Shown: one piece after another, positions 2,126 through 60,047 of the stretch
Layout: every line of letters starts with the position of its first letter
How positions within the stretch are numbered: position 1 is the first letter of the stretch
Assembly: GCA_018649725.1 (NCBI GenBank)
Contig: JABIHH010000046.1
Span: 24,508 to 88,507, forward strand
DNA from: Rhodospirillaceae bacterium
GTDB lineage: Bacteria; Pseudomonadota; Alphaproteobacteria; Rhodospirillales; UBA2165
Reading direction: 5' to 3'
Length of the DNA stretch: 64,000 nucleotides
Made by a program: the position numbers and the translations under genes
The notes under the pieces: model-generated
The model's input: the letters and a program-made list of their open reading frames with translations, nothing else
The model's database searches: none
Told to the model about the DNA's origin: nothing

Positions 2126-4405
2126 TTAAGTCCCAGCTCTTTGTTCGCCGGCAACGCCGCCCGGCGTTAACTTGTCGAAGGGGTCTCGTCGGATCAGGAA
2201 GCGAATAATCGGTGTGCCGTAATCCATCGCCAACCGACCCAGAATATGACCTTTGGGTTTGTCGGCATAGCGATGGCCAAGCTCGGTGATCCAGGGGCGG
2301 ATACCGGCCGCAAGCCAGCGGCCAAAGCTCATCGGTGCCCGCCGTGAGAGCGCAATCAGCGGTTTGGCAATCAAACGGTAGGTATGACTGACGCAGTCCG
2401 TATCTTCGGCCCAATCCTCACCAAATCCCCGAAAGGGGTTTTCATAGCGGGAATATTTGCGCTCAATGTCCCACTCTTCATCGGAGAACCAGCCCTGGCG
2501 ATGAAGCTCGGCGCAGATGATGGTCGAGTTGTGAACCCGAAAGCCGCCCGCAACAAAACAATCGCCGCCGGCCACTTCAAGGTTGTAGACGTTGTCTGCC
2601 TCACCATCGCTATAGATTTGGCGGACGATATGGCTCGAACCATCGGCATTGACGAGCTCAATGCCCGGCTCAATTTCACGGGCAAAAATCCATTTGCCAT
2701 TGGCACACAGGAACGGATGCGGCGGGGTGGCCTTCACGCCATCAATATTAATCAGCCGCCGCCGCCCGGAGACAATGTTCTCCAGCACCAGCTCTGATTT
2801 AATCTCACCAAGATTGCTAAAGGAGGCGATCAGATCGCCGGGCTTGATTTCAGCAATTGGCTTTTCCGAACCATCTGCCATCAGGATCGGCGTGTCGCCG
2901 GTAAAGCATTCTGCGCCACCGCCGTCACCGGTTTCAACACCCCAAACGCCATCCGGACTCATACCAGACATAGGTGCACCGGTTGCAGTAGCGGTAAATC
3001 CACTATTCCCGCCCCCTCCTGTTGAACCGCCGGAGCCCATCGTTTCCGCATCATTGCCCATGGCGTCGATCGCACCGCCCATCGTATCCACGGTGCCGTC
3101 TGAATATGCACTTCCCCATTCGCCATCGGAATCAACCCCGTAGCCATAGCCATAATCACCACCAGCATAAGCACCACCGGACATGTCTCCGTTGGAGAAC
3201 ATGCCGCTTGAAAGAGCACTGCCATTGGGACCCGAGGCACCTACACCCCAGCCCCCATTGTAGGTGCCGTCAACAGCATAGCCACTGGCGATGTTACTTT
3301 CTGCACCGAGTAAATTATCGCCAATGTTGGCCGTTTGTTCTCCCAAGGAATTTACTGAATTAGAGGCACCGGCGTTAGCGGGGTCTGTGTCCATCGTGTA
3401 ATTATGAGCCGCCGTGAAAGCATCTACAAAACTCACGGGCTCAACGCCATAATTGGTTTTCTCGCCGCTGGTGTCCGCTTTACCCGCGCTCGGACCAGCG
3501 GTCGTCGGGCTGTTGCCATAGATACTATTGCCCGGATTACCGCTCGTGCTGTGAGCCCCCCGATACGCCGCCCCGATGTCAGTGGTCGCACCCATAACCA
3601 TCGCCGTCGCCCGCTCCGCATGAGCCGCCTGTTCAGCCGGATCTACGGTCAGTGCAGTGTAGGCTGTCTGGTTGCCCGCTTTGGCACCGAGACTAGTGGG
3701 CCCAGTGTTTGTAAAGCCGACCAAGGCGGCATTGGCGACTTCATTGAGCGTATCATTGCCGGTATTGCCCATCAGCGCACCAGGGTCGGTATCTGAGATA
3801 CCTAACGGCGAAGCCGAGTCAGTTGTATCTTCGAGATAGGATTCGCCAAAATAATCATTAATAACGCCGTCTACACCATAGTTTTCTGGAGCCGTGCCAC
3901 CGCCGAGGGGGTCAGTGGGGGCAAATTCGTCATCGGAATAAAACCAAGCTAAGTCTTTGTCACTGATGCCACCCCCAAATGGGTCGGCGTCACGAATCGC
4001 GTTTGCACCTGGATGCGACAATCCCATTTCTTCTGAAATCATATTAGCAGTTTGAGCGGCTGTACGACCAACAGGGTCGGCTGCAATGCCTGCGTAATAG
4101 CCAATACCTTTACCTGCATGTCTACCTAACTGGCTGCCTATGATGGCTCCTTCCTTCCCTAATCTGGAGCCAATTTTTCCTCCGACAATTCCACCGATCC
4201 GGCCTCCTAATTTTGCTCCTTTTTCGTCCAATCCATAATCAGGGGCATTTCCCGGAAGCCCGTTGAACGTAGTAGCGGTATAGGTTTGTGGCTCACCATG
4301 GACATTTCCATTCTGATCAACCGTTGAAACAGATTGTTCCCACATACCGGTATCCTGATTGAAATGAGCGGGGCCATAAGATGTTGAAAACTCGATACTT
4401 GCCAT
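2126..4405 (-). CDS. 759-aa glycine-zipper / low-complexity protein with an internal Hint (pretoxin-HINT / bacterial intein-like) module and an unassigned C-terminal domain; putative self-processing effector or bacteriocin
   Basis: This is a long uninterrupted ORF. GxxxG repeats span aa 66-110. The Hint blocks are CFTGDTPILMADG (Cys500), ATPPHPF (TxxH) and VYNLEVAGGDCFVAGGFRVHN followed by Ser627. The start ATG overlaps the stop of the upstream small gene (TGATG). Confidence 0.8.
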   Translation of the reverse strand: MASIEFSTSYGPAHFNQDTGMWEQSVSTVDQNGNVHGEPQTYTATTFNGLPGNAPDYGLDEKGAKLGGRIGGIVGGKIGSRLGKEGAIIGSQLGRHAGKGIGYYAGIAADPVGRTAAQTANMISEEMGLSHPGANAIRDADPFGGGISDKDLAWFYSDDEFAPTDPLGGGTAPENYGVDGVINDYFGESYLEDTTDSASPLGISDTDPGALMGNTGNDTLNEVANAALVGFTNTGPTSLGAKAGNQTAYTALTVDPAEQAAHAERATAMVMGATTDIGAAYRGAHSTSGNPGNSIYGNSPTTAGPSAGKADTSGEKTNYGVEPVSFVDAFTAAHNYTMDTDPANAGASNSVNSLGEQTANIGDNLLGAESNIASGYAVDGTYNGGWGVGASGPNGSALSSGMFSNGDMSGGAYAGGDYGYGYGVDSDGEWGSAYSDGTVDTMGGAIDAMGNDAETMGSGGSTGGGGNSGFTATATGAPMSGMSPDGVWGVETGDGGGAECFTGDTPILMADGSEKPIAEIKPGDLIASFSNLGEIKSELVLENIVSGRRRLINIDGVKATPPHPFLCANGKWIFAREIEPGIELVNADGSSHIVRQIYSDGEADNVYNLEVAGGDCFVAGGFRVHNSTIICAELHRQGWFSDEEWDIERKYSRYENPFRGFGEDWAEDTDCVSHTYRLIAKPLIALSRRAPMSFGRWLAAGIRPWITELGHRYADKPKGHILGRLAMDYGTPIIRFLIRRDPFDKLTPGGVAGEQRAGT
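2528..2908 (-). other. Hint (Hedgehog/intein) module, 127 aa (aa 500-626), with all canonical catalytic positions present
   Basis: Cys1 is encoded by TGC at 2906-2908. Block B is TPPH and the C-terminal is His-Asn (codons ending at 2528). The +1 residue is Ser. Confidence 0.75.
4076..4210 (-). other. Glycine-zipper segment (aa 66-110) of the 759-aa protein
   Basis: LGGRIGGIVGGKIGSRLGKEGAIIGSQLGRHAGKGIGYYAGIAA shows consecutive GxxxG/GxxxA spacing. Confidence 0.6.
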
Positions 4406-4647
4406 CAGATATTACCTTTTTTGTTGGATTTAAACTTTGAAAATAAAAAATATGAGAAATGTAGGATGAATTCTAATGATAAGAATAAAAATATATAGAC
4501 TACGGATTCTATCATTAGGCTGTAATTTTCTAGAAAAGTGTCTAGATCGAATGAGAAATAAACTATCGAATAAACTAAAAATAAAATTGAATGTTGTTTT
4601 TTTGTTAAAGGCAAAACCCAATTGGGATTTAAATTTGATCTAATCAT
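4405..4647 (-). CDS. Small two-TM protein B (80 aa), paralogue of 4748..4990; candidate immunity or export partner
   Basis: I chose the start at MIRSNL (ATG 4645-4647), which makes it colinear with and the same length as the paralogue. The two share an NP..P N-terminal motif, FD.D, LE and the C-terminal KFKSNK.GNI. The stop TGA overlaps the ATG of the 759-aa gene by 1 nt. The gene is very AT-rich. Confidence 0.6.
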   Translation of the reverse strand: MIRSNLNPNWVLPLTKKQHSILFLVYSIVYFSFDLDTFLENYSLMIESVVYIFLFLSLEFILHFSYFLFSKFKSNKKGNI

Positions 4648-4748
4648 TCTACTTCCAATGCCTCTATTACAGACGGATTTTCCCCACATGCCGGTTTTTG
4701 GTTGAAATGAGCGGGGCCATAAGATGTTGAAAACTCGATACTTGCCAT
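4644..4748 (-). pseudogene. Truncated duplicate of the 5' end of the 759-aa gene (34 codons: MASIEFSTSYGPAHFNQ then divergent and frameshifted)
   Basis: A 47-bp stretch, 4702-4748, is identical to 4359-4405. Flanking similarity extends to about 4663-4780 versus 4320-4437. A 1-nt indel after codon 17 shifts the frame. The fragment's TGA overlaps the ATG of small protein B (ATGA). Confidence 0.7.
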
Positions 4749-4990
4749 TAGATATTGCCTTCTTTGTTGGATTTGAATTTATCCAAAGAAAGGAAAATTA
4801 AATAAATTATTACCTCTAATATCAGTATAGATACTGCAAATATTATAATTGATAATAGTTCATTACTAATGGAAAATAATGAATCAATATCAAATAAGTA
4901 ATAAAGTAATGAATAAAAGATCATTATTGAATAGTATTGTAATCTGCTAATTGGTATATTCAGTTTTGGATTGAATGTTAACCTCACCAT
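4748..4990 (-). CDS. Small two-TM protein A (80 aa), paralogue of 4405..4647
   Basis: MVRLTFNPKLNIPISR...LDKFKSNKEGNI has two hydrophobic stretches. The stop TAA overlaps the ATG of the truncated toxin 5' copy (TAATG). A GAGG lies about 12 nt upstream of the ATG. The gene is very AT-rich. Confidence 0.6.
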   Translation of the reverse strand: MVRLTFNPKLNIPISRLQYYSIMIFYSLLYYLFDIDSLFSISNELLSIIIFAVSILILEVIIYLIFLSLDKFKSNKEGNI

Positions 4991-5850: not shown

Positions 5851-5953
5851 ACCTCCCACCCCAGCCCTCCCCCTCAAGGGGGGAGGGGGTAAGCTTAAAA
5901 TGAGTGACCCAAACTTCCTCCCCCTTGATGGGGGAGGATTGAGGAGGGGGTGA
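5851..5953. repeat. Composite GC-rich palindromic element (CCCTCCCCC-TCAAGG-GGGGAGGG family), degenerate full-length copy
   Basis: There are two internal hairpins: CCCTCCCCCTCAAGGGGGGAGGG at about 5865-5887 and CCTCCCCCTTGATGGGGGAGG at about 5917-5937. The outer arms resemble those of the element at 59944-60047. Confidence 0.75.
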
Positions 5954-7713: not shown

Positions 7714-8187
7714 TTAATCGCTGAGCAGGCGTTGCGATAAATTGCGCAACATGCCGGCGGTGGCGCCCCAAATAAAATAGTCCTGCCAGGTGATGGCAAA
7801 ATGATGGCGCGTCTGGCCGTTGAACTCGCGGGCAAAGCGCTCGAAATTTTCCGGATGGATGAGAAAGTCGAGCGGCGCTTCGAAAATCTCAGCGACCTCA
7901 TCTTCTTGCGGAGTGAGCTCAAAAGGCGGCTCAATGACGCCGATGATCGGGTTGACGAGATAGCCCGTGCCGACAATGTACTCATCCAGCTCACCAATGA
8001 TCTCAATGTGGCGAGAATGCAGCCCGACCTCTTCTTCGGTTTCCCGTAGCGCCGTGTGCTGGGCGTCGCGATCATTATCATCGACGCGCCCACCTGGGAA
8101 ACTGATTTGCCCGGCATGATTTTTAAGATGTTCGGTGCGCTTGGTCAGCATAACGTTGAGACGATCTTCGCGGACCACCAGCGGCAC
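7714..8187 (-). CDS. nudL: CoA pyrophosphatase, NUDIX hydrolase family
   Basis: The Nudix box is GGRVDDNDRDAQHTALRETEEEVGL. The GTG start at 8185-8187 is the first canonical start, but homologous-looking sequence (TPAAVLVPL context) continues in frame upstream. Confidence 0.8.
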   Translation of the reverse strand: MPLVVREDRLNVMLTKRTEHLKNHAGQISFPGGRVDDNDRDAQHTALRETEEEVGLHSRHIEIIGELDEYIVGTGYLVNPIIGVIEPPFELTPQEDEVAEIFEAPLDFLIHPENFERFAREFNGQTRHHFAITWQDYFIWGATAGMLRNLSQRLLSD

Positions 8188-15854: not shown

Positions 15855-16196
15855 ATGCCATTTGTCAGACGTAATGCCGAAGATGAGGTTGAGGCCGTTT
15901 TTACCGCGCCTGAAGACGGGGCGACAGAAGAACTCCCTGCCGGCAGTGAAGAGCTTGTTGCCTTTTTTGGTGTTGGCGTGCTGGACATTATCAAAAACGA
16001 TGAATGGCTCCAGGCGGATTTATCGCTGGCCCGCGTGACCGAGGATTTGATCGAGGTTTTAATCGAGAAAGGGGCGATCGCGTTTACTGACCTTCCCGAA
16101 GGAGCCCAAAGTAAACTGATCGATCGCCAGGGTCTTCGGAGCGAGCTTTCCTATATCGAAAAGCTCTTTGGCTCCGATGAGGATAATTACCTCTAG
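15855..16196 (+). CDS. Hypothetical acidic 113-aa protein
   Basis: This is a clean ORF downstream of the operon. I recognise no family. Confidence 0.5.
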   Translation: MPFVRRNAEDEVEAVFTAPEDGATEELPAGSEELVAFFGVGVLDIIKNDEWLQADLSLARVTEDLIEVLIEKGAIAFTDLPEGAQSKLIDRQGLRSELSYIEKLFGSDEDNYL

Positions 16197-16952: not shown

Positions 16953-17093
16953 GTCTTTCGCCTCCTTAGACGTTATTTGTTAGAATTGTTTGCGTTTGAT
17001 GAGGTTAATATAAAAAGACGGCGTCACGGCGGCATCAAATCAATGGGATTGGGGCGTGAAAAAAGCGTGAAATTGGGAAAAAGGCACAAAAAA

Positions 17094-17125
17094 GGCCGAT
17101 TTTTCATCAAAACCGGCCTTTCTTA
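17094..17125 (-). terminator. Rho-independent terminator hairpin, duplicate of the infC terminator
   Basis: The plus strand reads aaaaaaggccgatttttcatcaaaaccggccttt. The minus strand gives the stem GGCCGGTTTT/AAAATCGGCC followed by a T-run. It is near-identical to 19338-19370. Confidence 0.6.
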
Positions 17126-17141
17126 GTTTATTTTCTCTAAA

Positions 17142-17370
17142 TTACATCGGTGAAATAATCATGGTCATTTGGCGACTTCATCCATGTCTTTTTGAACCGA
17201 ACTCAGAATACCACCGCAATTGCCAGGCTTCATTAAAAATTGGGACCATACTAAATCATAGAATAAAACGTTTGCTTTACTCGCCAATGCGGACATTGAT
17301 GCCAGGATTTTGTATGTAATACCCTGTCATAAACTCAAAATATATTTGTTTGAATCCTTGGTTTTTCTCA
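17142..17370 (-). pseudogene. Decayed partial copy of the infC 3' end (C-terminal domain)
   Basis: The minus-strand translation gives QMTMIISPM* (infC has QMTMVISPK*) and GILSSVQKDMDEVAK (infC has [16 protein letters not shown]) in different frames, separated by a deletion of about 34 nt. Nucleotide similarity is weaker and AT-shifted further 5'. Confidence 0.65.
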
Positions 17371-17482
17371 AATTAGCAACAATCTATAATTAACAGTAGT
17401 TCGTGTTCAATATCCGGTATAATTTTTTTGAATTTTTGATCCGTTTATTTTCCCCATTTCAAACGCAAAGGAAATTAACATC

Positions 17483-19192
17483 GTGCTCGGTGATGAAGCA
17501 GTAAAAGAAATCAGTACCGAACTTCGTCAAAGTGAAGAGCGGTTTTCATTGGCTATGCGAGGAGCCAATGATGGATTGTGGGATTGGAACCTAGAAACAG
17601 ATGAGGTTTATTATTCTCCACGCTGGATTCAAATGTTGGGATTCAAAGAGAGTGAGCTTGATACAACGCTCGATACCTGGAAGACATTGGTTCATCCAGA
17701 TGATCAAGGGGTGGTGCTTGAGAAGGTCCAAGATTATATCGATGGCCGGGCAAATTCATTTGAAGTTGAAATGCGTATGCGACACAAAGATGGTCATTAT
17801 CTTTTTATTCTGTCCCGTGCCTTTTTGGCCAAACAGGAAAACGATGATATGCCGTATCGTCTCGTTGGAACCCACGTGGACATCACCGAACGAAAAAAAT
17901 CTGAACAGTTTGTATTAGATACATCAAATATCCTTGAGATGATTGCAACGGGAGAACCTGCTAGAAATATCTATGATGCTATTGCGCTGCTGTATGAGTC
18001 GTGTCATCCGGGACTGCGTTGTTCAATGCTTGTTCTAGAAGGCAACAAACTCATGCATGGGGGAGCGCCAAGCCTTCCGAAGGAATACTGCGATGCGGTA
18101 AACGGATTGGAAAATGGTCCAAATGTTGGTTCATGCGGAACATCCACATACACCGGAGAAACCGTGTTAGTTGAAAATATTGAGACAGACCCAAAATGGG
18201 AAAAACTCAAGCGGTATGCACTCCCCCATGGATTGCGATGCTGTTGGTCCGAACCTATTATAAATGCTGAGGGCCGGGTATTGGGCGCATTCGGTATGTA
18301 TTACAACCATCCCGCTCTTCCTAACGAAAATGAATTGAATGACCTGCGATCTGCCGCCAGACTTGCCGCCATAATTATGAACCGAGACAATTCAGAAAAA
18401 GAACTCCTTCATCACAGACTAAATCTTGAAGAATCAATTTCACAACGCACGAAGGAACTTGAAAAAGCAAGGAAGCTGGCTGAGAAGGCTAACAACGCCA
18501 AATCTGTTTTTTTGGCAAATATGAGCCATGAACTGAGAACGCCGTTAAATGCGATAGTCGGGTTTTCTGACGTTCTAACTGAAAAAATATTTGGCCCTTT
18601 TAACAATGAAAAACAAGAAGAATATGTCAATAACATTCACGAATCCGGATTGCATTTGCTTAACTTGATCAGTGATGTTCTAGATCTTTCAGCCATTGAG
18701 GCAGATAAACTTGAGTTAGCTGAGGAAGAAATTGATATTACCGAAATGGTTGCCGCATCTCTACTATTGATCAAATCAAAAGCCGAACAAGGTGGTATCG
18801 ATCTCATTAATAAAGTTGCAGGTCAGCAACAGATTATCCGCGCCGACGGCAGACGAATAAAACAAGTTCTCATCAATATTTTGTCAAATGCTGTCAAATT
18901 TACCAAGAGAGATGGAAAAGTTATTGTGTACTGTGAAAACGATCAGGATGGATCAGTTTCGTTGGTTGTATCTGATACCGGTATCGGAATGAGCGCCGAT
19001 GATCTTGAATATGCAATGGAGCCATTTGAGCAAATCAATACAGAGGATATTATGAATCAAGACGGTATTGGATTGGGTCTCCCCCTCACCAAACAGCTAA
19101 CTGAGGCGTTAGGGGCTTCGCTTTTTATTGAGAGTGAACCAAATATTGGAACGACTGTGCGAGTTACGTTTCCGGCAAAAAAAGTTACGTAA
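17483..19192 (+). CDS. PAS-GAF sensor histidine kinase
   Basis: The PAS S-box reads GANDGLWDWNL...YYSPRW. A GAF-like middle region follows. The HisKA box is FLANMSHELRTPLN and the HATPase_c motifs are NAVKFT...DTGIGM...GLGL. GC is visibly lower than in flanking core genes. Confidence 0.85.
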   Translation: MLGDEAVKEISTELRQSEERFSLAMRGANDGLWDWNLETDEVYYSPRWIQMLGFKESELDTTLDTWKTLVHPDDQGVVLEKVQDYIDGRANSFEVEMRMRHKDGHYLFILSRAFLAKQENDDMPYRLVGTHVDITERKKSEQFVLDTSNILEMIATGEPARNIYDAIALLYESCHPGLRCSMLVLEGNKLMHGGAPSLPKEYCDAVNGLENGPNVGSCGTSTYTGETVLVENIETDPKWEKLKRYALPHGLRCCWSEPIINAEGRVLGAFGMYYNHPALPNENELNDLRSAARLAAIIMNRDNSEKELLHHRLNLEESISQRTKELEKARKLAEKANNAKSVFLANMSHELRTPLNAIVGFSDVLTEKIFGPFNNEKQEEYVNNIHESGLHLLNLISDVLDLSAIEADKLELAEEEIDITEMVAASLLLIKSKAEQGGIDLINKVAGQQQIIRADGRRIKQVLINILSNAVKFTKRDGKVIVYCENDQDGSVSLVVSDTGIGMSADDLEYAMEPFEQINTEDIMNQDGIGLGLPLTKQLTEALGASLFIESEPNIGTTVRVTFPAKKVT

Positions 19193-19221
19193 ACAAGCCT
19201 TAAAAAAATGTCTGAGCAAAT

Positions 19222-19252
19222 GTCCGCTTTGGGTCTAAAGCGGACTCTTTTG
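19222..19252 (+). terminator. Rho-independent terminator after the histidine kinase gene
   Basis: The hairpin GTCCGCTTT-gggtct-AAAGCGGAC is followed by TCTTTTG. Confidence 0.6.
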
Positions 19253-19337
19253 CGTTATGTCGATAACGTCCGCTTTCGGGAGTATAGCGGACTTATACGC
19301 ATTGTCGTCTTCGTCATAAAAGCAGCCAACCTACCAA

Positions 19338-19370
19338 TAAAAAAGCCGATTTTTCTCAAAACCGGCCTTT
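19338..19370 (-). terminator. Rho-independent terminator of infC
   Basis: The minus strand reads AAAAAGGCCGGTTTTGAGAAAAATCGGCTTTTTT, about 20 nt after the infC stop. Confidence 0.65.
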
Positions 19371-19391
19371 TTAAATTTATTTAGATAAAAT

Positions 19392-19928
19392 TTACTTCGG
19401 TGAGATCACCATCGTCATTTGGCGGCCTTCCATCTTGGGGAATTGCTCAACCTTGGCGACGCTGTCCATGTCTTCTTGAACCCGGTCTAGGATCTTGGCA
19501 CCTAATTCCTGGTGGGCCATTTCCCGGCCCCGGAAGCGCAGCGTCACTTTGACTTTGTCACCTTCACCAATGAACTTGTTCATCGCGCGTAGTTTGACCT
19601 GATAATCGTGGGTTTCAATGCCCGGACGCATTTTGATCTCTTTGACCACGATGACATTTTGCTTTTTCTTGGCTTCATTCTTTTTCTTCTGGGCTTCGTA
19701 TTTAAACTTGCCGTAGTCAAGAATTTTACAAACCGGTGGAACTGCATTTGGTGATATAGCAACCAAATCCAGGCCAGCGTCATAAGCGCGTTCTATAGCT
19801 TCTTCTTTGGAAACAACCCCGGCCATTTCTCCGTCGGCTAATACCAGCCTGACTTCTTCCGAGTTGATGTCTTCATTAATTGCCGGACCCTCTTTGGATG
19901 GGGTGGCGTTAAAGGGTGGACGTGCGAT
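19392..19928 (-). CDS. infC: Translation initiation factor IF-3, with a non-canonical ATC start
   Basis: The ORF-track Met (19826) lies inside the N-terminal domain. The in-frame sequence [34 protein letters not shown] continues upstream to ATC at 19926-19928, which is preceded by AAGGAG at about 9 nt. Confidence 0.85.
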
Positions 19929-20058: not shown

Positions 20059-21972
20059 TTAACTGCCGGGAATAATAGCTTCTTCGCGTAGTTTAGCAAC
20101 TGCTGTTTCAAGCGCAAGAATTTCTTGGTCTTTTCCACCCAATCGGCGCATGGCAACCGTGCTTTCTTCGGCCTCTCTGCCGCCAACCACCATGATTACC
20201 GGGACTTTTGCGACGGAATGCTCTCGAATTTTATAATTAATTTTTTCGTTGCGAAGATCGGCCTCAGCGCTCAATCCAGCCGATTTTAGCTCTTCGAGTA
20301 CTTTTTCGGCATACGGAATGGCTTCATCGGTAATCGTTGCCACCACCACTTGAAGCGGTGCCAGCCAGAACGGGAAGCGTCCGGCATAGTTTTCAATCAA
20401 GATACCCAAGAAGCGCTCAAACGAACCTAGGATGGCACGGTGCAGCATAACCGGGCGGTGCTTTTCACCATCTTCACCGACGTAAGCGGCGTCCAAACGC
20501 TCCGGCAATACGAAATCAACCTGTAGCGTGCCACATTGCCAATCGCGGCCAATCGCATCGCGCAAGACAAACTCAAGCTTAGGGCCATAGAATGCGCCTT
20601 CGCCGGGGTTGAGATCATACTCATAACCGGCAGCTTTCACCGCCTCTATCAAAGCGCCCTCGGCTTTATCCCACGTCGCATCATCGCCGGCTCGAACTTC
20701 CGGGCGGTCGGAGAATTTAATAACAACGTCTTCGAAGCCGAAATCCTTATAGACACTCATCAAAAGATCACAGAAGGTTTTGGTCTCTTCGGTGATTTGA
20801 TCTTCGGTGCAGAAAATATGCGCATCATCTTGGGTAAAGGCGCGCACCCGCATCAAACCATGCAACGCACCGGATGGCTCATTTCTGTGACAGGAGCCAA
20901 ATTCCGCCATGCGTAATGGCAGATCGCGATAGCTTTTGGTACCATGGCGGAAAATTTGCACATGGCAGGGACAATTCATCGGTTTGATGGCGAGGATTTT
21001 ATCTTCGGCCTCAGAAATAAACATCGCATCCCGGAATTTCTCCCAGTGCCCTGAGTCTTCCCAGAGCGAGCGGTTAACCAATTGCGGCGTGTTGACCTCA
21101 ACATAATCAGCCTTCTCAAGCCGGTTGCGAATATAAGTTTGGACCGTCCGGTAAAGCTGCCAGCCTTTGGGATGCCAGAACGCCGAGCCGATGGCTTCTT
21201 CCTGAATATGGAATAACTCCATTTCGCGGCCGAGGCGACGGTGGTCGCGCTTCTCGGCTTCTTCCAACATGTGGAGATAGGCTTTGAGCTGCTTTTTATC
21301 GGCCCAAGCCGTGCCGTAAATCCGTTGCAACATTTCATTGTCAGAATTACCGCGCCAATAAGCGCCGGCGAGTTTCATCAATTTGAAATGTTTGCCGAGC
21401 TTGCCGGTCGACGGCAAATGCGGACCCCGGCAGAGATCGATCCAATCGCCTTGGCGGTACATCGAGACATCCTCACCAGCCGGGATCGCTTCAATGAGTT
21501 CAGCCTTATAGGCTTCGCCTTTATCTTTGAAGAATTTGATGGCGTCGTCGCGGTCCCAAACCTCGCGGATAAAGGGCTGATCGCGGTCGACAATTTCGCC
21601 CATCTTGGCTTCGATCTTCTCGAAATCATCTGACGAGAACGGCTCTTCCCGCGCAAAGTCATAGTAATAGCCGTTTTCGATAGACGGTCCGATGGTCACC
21701 TGAGTGCCGGGGAAAAGTTCCTGCACGGCTTCGGCCATCACATGAGCAGCATCGTGGCGGATCAGATCAAGTGCATCATCATCTTTGGCGGTCACGATGG
21801 AAAAATCGCAGTCTTCCTCAATCACGAGAGACAAATCTTTCATCTCATCATTGATGCGGATTGCGAGAGCCGCTTTGGCGAGTCCGGGGCCAATATCAGC
21901 TGCCACATCGGCACCCGAAAGCGGCGCGTCATAGTCGCGGACTGAACCATCTGGAAGGGTTAATTTTACCAT
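20059..21972 (-). CDS. thrS: Threonyl-tRNA synthetase
   Basis: The 637-aa product has a TGS domain at the N-terminus ([10 protein letters not shown]), class II motifs ([25 protein letters not shown]) and an anticodon-binding C-terminus. Confidence 0.95.
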
Positions 21973-59943: not shown

Positions 59944-60047
59944 CCCCCCACCCCAACCCTCCCCCTCAAGGAGGGAGGGGGTTATTGTTGCACGGTATTT
60001 AATCCACTTCTCCCTCCCTCCTTGAGGGGGAGGGTTGGGGTGGGGGG
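59944..60047. repeat. 104-bp composite palindromic element: perfect 36-bp inverted repeats, each with its own internal hairpin, around a 32-bp AT-richer spacer
   Basis: 59944-59979 (CCCCCCACCCCAACCCTCCCCCTCAAGGAGGGAGGG) is the exact reverse complement of 60012-60047. Confidence 0.9.

Follow-up and report, generated by a model that had tools for sequence, protein, structure and literature searches.

Why should a broken second copy of the end of an essential translation gene lie some 2.2 kb from the intact gene, with a single sensor kinase gene between the two? The question is raised by the infC locus in a 64,000-nt stretch of DNA from a Rhodospirillaceae bacterium (assembly GCA_018649725.1, contig JABIHH010000046.1, positions 24,508 to 88,507), which we call the window and whose positions supply all the coordinates used here. 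In this locus infC, the gene for IF3, is followed by a convergent PAS-GAF sensor histidine kinase gene and then by a direct repeat of the infC 3' end and its terminator (Table 1). With moderate assurance, we regard this arrangement as probably the old, fixed scar of an insertion with duplication around the kinase, one that required no dedicated mobile element.

The fragment (17088 to about 17231) is a direct repeat of 19339 to about 19515 and comprises infC codons ~143-180, the 3' untranslated region (UTR) and a predicted intrinsic terminator. The two copies, spaced 2250 bp apart, measure ~144 nt in the decayed and ~177 nt in the working form. A first-pass annotation of this DNA, made by eye, had aligned 17094-17215 with 19338-19500 at an offset of about 2250 bp, and this match is indeed far from accidental: the local alignment of 17089-17215 with 19339-19500 scores 325 against 99 ± 14 for 300 shuffles (z=16), and the pair was recovered independently by repeat finding and by self-blastn. 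The translated matches reported at the same time reappear in a tblastn search with InfC, which finds residues 148-161 (10/14 identical) and 171-179 (8/9) in two different frames, the aligned translations being ILSSVQKDMDEVAK (14 residues) and RQMTMIISP versus RQMTMVISP. The frame is broken, as had also been described, by the loss of 34 nt that in infC are flanked by 8-bp repeats, TTGGCGGC (19419-19426) and TTGGCGAC (19453-19460); a single TTGGCGAC is left in the fragment at 17169-17176. Such a loss between short direct repeats, with one copy left behind, is a classic footprint of slippage. The codon alignment shows the fragment to be one further codon short and its coding remnant to be identical to infC at 57 of 76 positions (~25% substitutions). 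Only residues ~143-161 and 171-180 survive, in two frames and with no start codon, and the fragment has no complete open reading frame (ORF); the intact gene has a complete ORF with both the IF3_N and the IF3_C domain. The fragment is, to judge from its sequence, a dead, displaced and decaying duplicate of the infC 3' end and terminator.

A weaker similarity had been thought to continue inwards to about 17370, and this part of the first reading has to be dropped: 17216-17480 compared with the rest of infC gives z values of -1.0 to +1.0, and tblastn finds nothing past ~17231, which is also the limit of the match by eye (perhaps 17250). On the outer side both copies end precisely with the six-base A/U tract (17088 and 19339), and the sequences outside the two hairpins are unrelated (z=-1.1). 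The terminator is no dispersed repeat, for the window contains no further copy of it, and a search near the junction for second copies of the p113, p250, kinase and thrS 3' ends was negative.

The two terminators have fared differently from the rest of the repeat. Their hairpins, already described as nearly identical, match at 31 of 33 positions (94%), compared with 67% in the spacer and 75% in the coding part (Fisher p=0.014, hairpin vs rest). By prediction both are strong intrinsic (Rho-independent) terminators, each a stable GC-containing stem-loop with six U directly behind it, placed after a stop codon: the hairpin of the decayed copy, T2, folds at -21.8 kcal/mol (z -4.8), and that of working infC, T1, at -18.5 kcal/mol (z -4.4). 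Rfam returned sub-threshold, terminator-driven matches only. The preservation of the T2 hairpin while its spacer and coding neighbours diverged suggests that T2 is still under selection. It lies directly upstream of the p250 promoter region and is probably kept to shield that region from upstream transcription.

As for the age of the duplication, the spacer and coding parts have diverged by ~0.3-0.44 substitutions per site (Jukes-Cantor). We compared this with the synonymous divergence (dS) from L001, the closest genome among the matches listed (ThrS 91% identical, 82.6% nucleotide identity), which is 0.64 for infC and 1.2 for thrS. Set against these values, the event is old: as a rough estimate, its age would amount to anything from a third to all of the age of the split from the L001 lineage. 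L001 was also tried as an outgroup to tell which copy is the original, and this was abandoned: compared three ways, working tail, fragment and L001 infC show identities of 75%, 72% and 71% and site patterns of 10, 8 and 7, a near-star pattern that leaves the matter undecided. At the motif DMDEVAK the fragment holds the ancestral Glu where working infC has Ser, a difference compatible either with a replaced working tail or with a later change in the working tail.

What lies between the copies is a 2.1-kb insert whose sole gene is the kinase, as had been stated. Its Pfam domains are, in order, PAS_3, GAF_2, HisKA and HATPase_c (E-values 1e-11 to 1e-24). Two orthologues, 78% identical, occur in related metagenome-assembled genomes (MAGs), in two other neighbourhoods and with no infC nearby. 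Nucleotide similarity to these orthologue loci spans 17481-19274. A hairpin motif, AATGTCCGC...GCGGACATT, lies downstream of the kinase in all three loci, and an upstream hairpin motif, at the same distance from the start codon, is intact in L105 (CAATGTCCGCTTTTGGCTAAAAGCGGACATTG) and decayed in the window. Copies of the motif are therefore found on both sides of the module (window 17267-17298, 19219-19245 and 19265-19291; L105:5994-6025 and 7947-8011). It may serve as a terminator or as a mobility signal, or it may be the scar of an older duplication. We also considered a genome-wide repetitive extragenic palindrome (REP) and rejected it, as in the window the motif occurs only at the kinase module. 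The insert consists of one self-contained kinase module plus ~35 and 46 nt of junction DNA (~80 nt in all), which leaves no room for a recombinase; the precomputed Pfam lists contain none in the insert or within ±10 kb, in agreement with the earlier remark that no integrase remains.

The low GC of the kinase had been taken as a hint of foreign origin. The composition itself is as described: no other 1.7 kb in the window is as low in GC as this gene (GC 42.7%; GC at third codon positions, GC3, 37.7%, with neighbours at 52-59%). The argument drawn from it is weak, however. The orthologues have a GC3 of 0.42 in loci of 48-53% GC and stand at a dS of 0.94-1.0 to the kinase; being equally AT-rich at a dS of ~1, they show that the low GC is old and is not evidence for recent import, and we have rejected it as a sign of recent transfer. 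A separate observation concerns the PAS-GAF half of the protein (17483-18380, residues 1-~300), which shares 72-75% identity with the N-terminal halves of numerous metagenomic GGDEF/EAL proteins. Over the full length the orthologues reach 78% and every other full-length kinase at most 61%. This identity to GGDEF/EAL proteins, close to the orthologue level and above that of the other full-length kinases, suggests that the PAS-GAF half is a shared, shuffled sensor module.

To place the junction in its phylogenetic setting, we sampled at least 80 genome loci of relatives through ThrS; closer genomes may exist. Between 27768 and 19393 the window is colinear with L001, and the similarity ends exactly at the infC stop codon (window 19393, L001:12588). 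The infC 3' UTR and terminator are lineage-specific and are not present in L001. In L001, L002, L003 and L005 infC is followed by rpmI-rplT-pheS-pheT; in the window this series does not follow infC, and rplT, pheS and pheT are absent from all 64 kb. The source species has lost the thrS-infC-rpmI-rplT-pheST linkage. On the other side of the junction, relatives that carry p691 (87% identical) have p113 and then other genes, with nucleotide similarity ending at the p113 stop codon in L106, L107 and L108, and p250 has homologues of no more than 65% identity, all of them in unrelated contexts. The segment 16197-19391 (p250, T2, fragment, kinase and T1) is, as far as these comparisons indicate, a species-specific junction that joins two conserved blocks. 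Among the matches listed no relative shares it: there is neither an infC-p250 arrangement without the kinase nor a kinase-less genome with the fragment. Within the species the junction is fixed. In 19 same-species contigs from independent assemblies (ENA, NCBI, JGI, Logan) the region is 100% identical and the structure complete; a variant contig (L114) has two base differences, both in p113, and the 90% ThrS cluster consists of one sequence. Magnetospirillum sp. LM-5 (L006) has, independently, a Bat cluster convergent with infC and ~2 kb behind it.

The two infC-tail copies bracket the kinase, and consequently some insertion of DNA probably duplicated its own target. The structure can be written as infC(1-142) - A1 - insert - A2 - original downstream DNA, where A stands for codons 143-180, the 3' UTR and the terminator; A1 is the working copy and A2 the fragment. 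The incoming DNA would have had the form infC tail - terminator - kinase module, and homologous exchange would have taken place within the infC tail. The second end would have been joined by one illegitimate junction near codon 143, either in a Campbell-like single crossover or by homology-facilitated illegitimate recombination (HFIR). Alternatively, a replication template switch that resumed ~140-180 nt upstream would have given an equal product. None of these routes would need a dedicated recombinase. The copy attached to infC would then have stayed under selection, while the other, non-functional copy decayed through slippage deletions and AT-biased substitutions with its T2 hairpin retained. 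At its outer edge the repeat meets a core/variable boundary, and the proposed insertion would explain this position: homology between genomes that differ in their downstream DNA extends only as far as the terminator, with which the core gene unit closes and beyond which the DNA is lineage-specific.

Known systems come close to this scheme. Both Campbell-type single crossovers and HFIR during DNA uptake, the latter in Acinetobacter, Pseudomonas stutzeri and Streptococcus pneumoniae, have been observed in the laboratory. One homologous anchor and one illegitimate joint can put foreign DNA beside a core gene, and after a single crossover the insert lies between two copies of the anchor. The infC locus resembles these systems in having a presumed anchor, duplicated around the insert, and a presumed illegitimate joint, but its route is reconstructed from an old scar in which any microhomology at the joint is no longer legible. 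The islands that target tRNA and tmRNA genes, ICESt1 and ICESt3 (fda) and SCCmec (rlmH) integrate at a gene's 3' end, of which they create a duplicate. They are similar in that repeats of the target 3' end bracket extra DNA, with the gene kept intact and the displaced copy on the far side of the insert; the infC locus differs in the lack of a recombinase, in its long and diverged repeat, in its cargo of a single kinase with terminators of its own, and in a target for which no reuse was found in 68 relatives. The cis-mobilizable elements (CIMEs) of Streptococcus thermophilus, integrase-less, att-flanked remnants of integrative conjugative or mobilizable elements, likewise present a cargo-only segment between gene 3'-end repeats with mobility genes absent. 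In none of the related loci, however, was a cognate element seen that shares the infC site and encodes an integrase, and there is no sign of mobility. Finally, pseudogenes that arise by segmental or tandem duplication are also truncated, frame-broken, AT-drifting copies near their parent, but what parts the infC copies is an unrelated gene module of distinct composition, not duplicated sequence.

When the related loci were each compared with themselves, several parallels came to light. A young one is on a metagenome contig (Ga0209578_10000419, L109:10260-12355), where a 103-bp, 99%-identical direct repeat, its copies 1993 bp apart, consists of the last 98 nt of a p113 homologue plus 5 nt. This repeat brackets a hipBA (hipA/hipB) toxin-antitoxin pair, with an AbiGi-like gene beyond and no integrase. 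The empty site is represented by L110 and L112, in which p113 is directly followed by gcvP, and one of the junctions has GGGGT in common. Beside the kinase orthologue in L103:11872-13100 (GCA_964574215.1, contig CAZNLR010000031.1) there is a probable decayed copy of residues 118-154, the C-terminus, of MarR, broken by three stop codons (49% over 37 aa, z=4.1), and a MAPEG gene lies between it and the intact marR. Two more direct repeats, both holding a gene 3' end (95-96% nucleotide and 94-96% amino-acid identity) and both lacking a recombinase, are a 366-bp repeat of a gene junction around a Na/H exchanger and acetate kinase/PTAC (L052:825-1190 and 4614-4978) and a repeat around a P-type ATPase (L047:16575-16864 and 20648-20938). 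A scan of 1232 ORFs for C- and N-terminal gene-end fragments proved, on comparison with a reversed-sequence control, to be noisy in high-GC loci below E~1e-6, and only its strongest cases are usable. Such scars look like a fairly common by-product of recombination in related genomes, which makes the infC case an ordinary one and not the trace of an infC-targeting element. One could go further and suppose that aquatic Rhodospirillales-type genomes recurrently place single cargo modules behind core genes, duplicating 100-180 bp of the 3' end with no element-encoded recombinase. The cargoes would then be the sensor kinase at infC, hipBA in L109, probably MAPEG in L103, and the transporters in L047 and L052. 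We consider this generalization decidedly doubtful. If it were true, and biased to 3' ends and terminators, it would amount to a distinct and undescribed mode of genomic-islet building, of which the infC scar would be one old example.

How does insertion with duplication compare with the other ways in which such a locus might have arisen? The first-pass annotation had named, as one possibility, an element that integrated into the infC 3' end. Its displaced, duplicated tail bracketing the kinase stands; a site-specific island is not supported. In that account the locus is the remnant of an island carrying a tyrosine or serine recombinase, which inserted in the infC 3' end, provided a replacement tail and lost its integrase, or else it is an att-flanked cargo that was moved in trans. 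Direct repeats of a target 3' end at both ends of the insert, with the gene intact, are indeed the classic signature, and the atypical composition of the cargo, the presence of the kinase module at three loci in three lineages and the Glu of the fragment opposite the Ser of the working tail all fit. Against this, neither a recombinase gene nor a remnant of one was found in the insert or within ±10 kb, the kinase module wholly explains the insert, and the low GC of the kinase is old. Nor was recurrent use of the target found: no second or partial infC tail came up in 68 related loci, no integrase-bearing element was seen downstream of infC among the matches listed (80 loci), and nothing relevant on infC as an attachment site was found in the literature searched. 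Moreover, since the repeated UTR and terminator are lineage-specific and missing from L001, the source of the incoming copy must lie within that lineage. We therefore judge a site-specific element to be quite unlikely. A purely local history, the alternative already named in the first reading, is also unlikely, if less so. Here the kinase would already have stood behind infC, and a tandem duplication of tail, terminator and kinase, or of the tail alone, would have been followed by deletion and decay, so that the repeat would have nothing to do with the arrival of the kinase. The duplication junctions in related loci, such as the L052 duplicate around two housekeeping-type genes, lend this some force, as does the age of the kinase family in the clade (dS ~1 to the orthologues). 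But it takes more steps, at least two events, including either a precise removal that restored the junction between the terminator and the p250 upstream region or an insertion exactly between tandem copies, and nothing remaining of another kinase copy was detected.

Two further possibilities carry little weight. The fragment might be a 5'-truncated cDNA of the infC mRNA 3' end that was inserted nearby; the repeat does end where the U-tract of the terminator ends, which is the expected 3' end of the transcript, and its truncation is on the 5' side. However, the core/variable boundary also explains that edge, no reverse transcriptase is present within ±10 kb, the L109 and L103 duplicates end elsewhere than at a terminator, and the kinase between the copies would be left unexplained, all of which makes an RNA-mediated copy very improbable. 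To chance similarity or an assembly artefact, which the short length of the match alone might suggest, we give practically no credence in view of the z of 16 against shuffles, the colinear protein matches and the identical structure in 19 contigs. Several points nevertheless weigh against the insertion-with-duplication that we prefer. The junction near 17231 is too decayed for microhomology to be read, and the near-star pattern may reflect either a very old event or a diverged donor, two cases that cannot be separated. No pre-insertion or donor state was found, and the route is read from the architecture alone; an empty or intermediate state was sought through the ThrS loci, the exact kinase and p250 proteins, the contexts of p250, kinase and p691 homologues, a p113 metagenome scan and the members of the 90% cluster, and there was none among the matches listed. 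In addition, the case for the retention of T2 by selection comprises 33 positions, and the L103 match lies at the noise level of the reversed-sequence control.

If an insertion with duplication did occur, the insertion of DNA at the 3' end of an essential translation gene would have been harmless to infC because it duplicated the tail and terminator. The scar also marks the exact point at which the ancestral thrS-infC-rpmI-rplT-pheST linkage was broken in the source species. For gene callers and island predictors, fragments of this kind can be a practical pitfall. At infC, low GC combined with a flanking repeat gives the impression of a recent island, although the low GC of the kinase is ancient. 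Should integrase-less cases reflect a common route, they would offer a handle on how single genes enter the variable islets beside core genes.

Table 1. Features of the infC junction and its surroundings, in window positions.
Feature	Position	Strand	Basis and remarks
thrS	21972-20059	minus	
Intact infC (IF3)	19392-19928	minus	translation; precomputed Pfam IF3_N and IF3_C; 178-aa gene call; C-terminal alignment with relatives
Repeat-bearing infC tail	19392-~19515	minus	within intact infC
T1, predicted intrinsic terminator of working infC	19338-19373	minus	A-tract 19339-19344; 18-nt spacer from infC stop codon
Junction DNA, kinase module to T1, 46 nt	19292-19337	.	similarity to orthologue loci ends ~19274; unrelated to T2 left flank
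Two terminator-like hairpins of kinase module	19219-19245 and 19265-19291	plus	terminator scan; fold -33.6 kcal/mol; kept 3' of orthologues in L105 and L103
PAS-GAF sensor histidine kinase, 569 aa	17483-19192	plus	convergent with infC; Pfam domains; 78%-identical orthologues at other loci
Kinase upstream region, AT-rich	17267-17482	plus	decayed hairpin 17267-17298 (AACGTTTGCTTT...AATGCGGACATT); perfect TATAAT 17408-17413
Junction DNA, fragment to kinase module, ~35 nt	17232-17266	.	no similarity to infC or to upstream regions of kinase orthologues
infC' pseudogene fragment	17142-17231	minus	stop codon 17142-17144; codons 171-180; deletion junction TTGGCGAC 17169-17176; codons ~143-161 minus one
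Remnant of infC 3' UTR spacer, pseudo-stop to T2	17126-17141	minus	aligned to 19374-19391, ~16/24 identical
T2, intact predicted terminator hairpin of decayed copy	17087-17125	minus	A-tract 17088-17093; fold and terminator scan
p250, conserved hypothetical, 250 aa	16200-16952	minus	ORF; downstream of fragment, in species-specific junction segment
p113	15855-16196		convergent with p250; then Bat-type cluster p691/p920

With respect to the neighbouring genes, neither p250 nor p113 matched any Pfam, NCBIfam or PHROG family. The intact infC apparently begins at a non-canonical ATC (19926-19928) with AAGGAG ahead of it, in agreement with the 178-aa gene call in NCBI MAGs; infC autoregulation is known to use unusual start codons, and the ATC start fits this. 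Farther away, a palindromic element of ~100 nt with C/G runs (CCCCCCACCCCAACCCTCCCCCTCAAGGAGGGAGGGGG ... and its inverse) is present twice in the window, at 59944-60047 and 5851-5950, and once in L001 (L001:19011-19056); it looks like a REP- or MITE-like repeat (MITE, miniature inverted-repeat transposable element). Finally, the stretch 2126-4990 encodes a 759-aa protein that bears a Hint-like motif (CFTGDTPILMADGSE...VHNS) and, behind it, a tandem pair of small hydrophobic paralogues of 94 and 80 aa (88% nucleotide identity over 109 nt); the whole has the look of a polymorphic toxin locus in which immunity-type genes have been duplicated.

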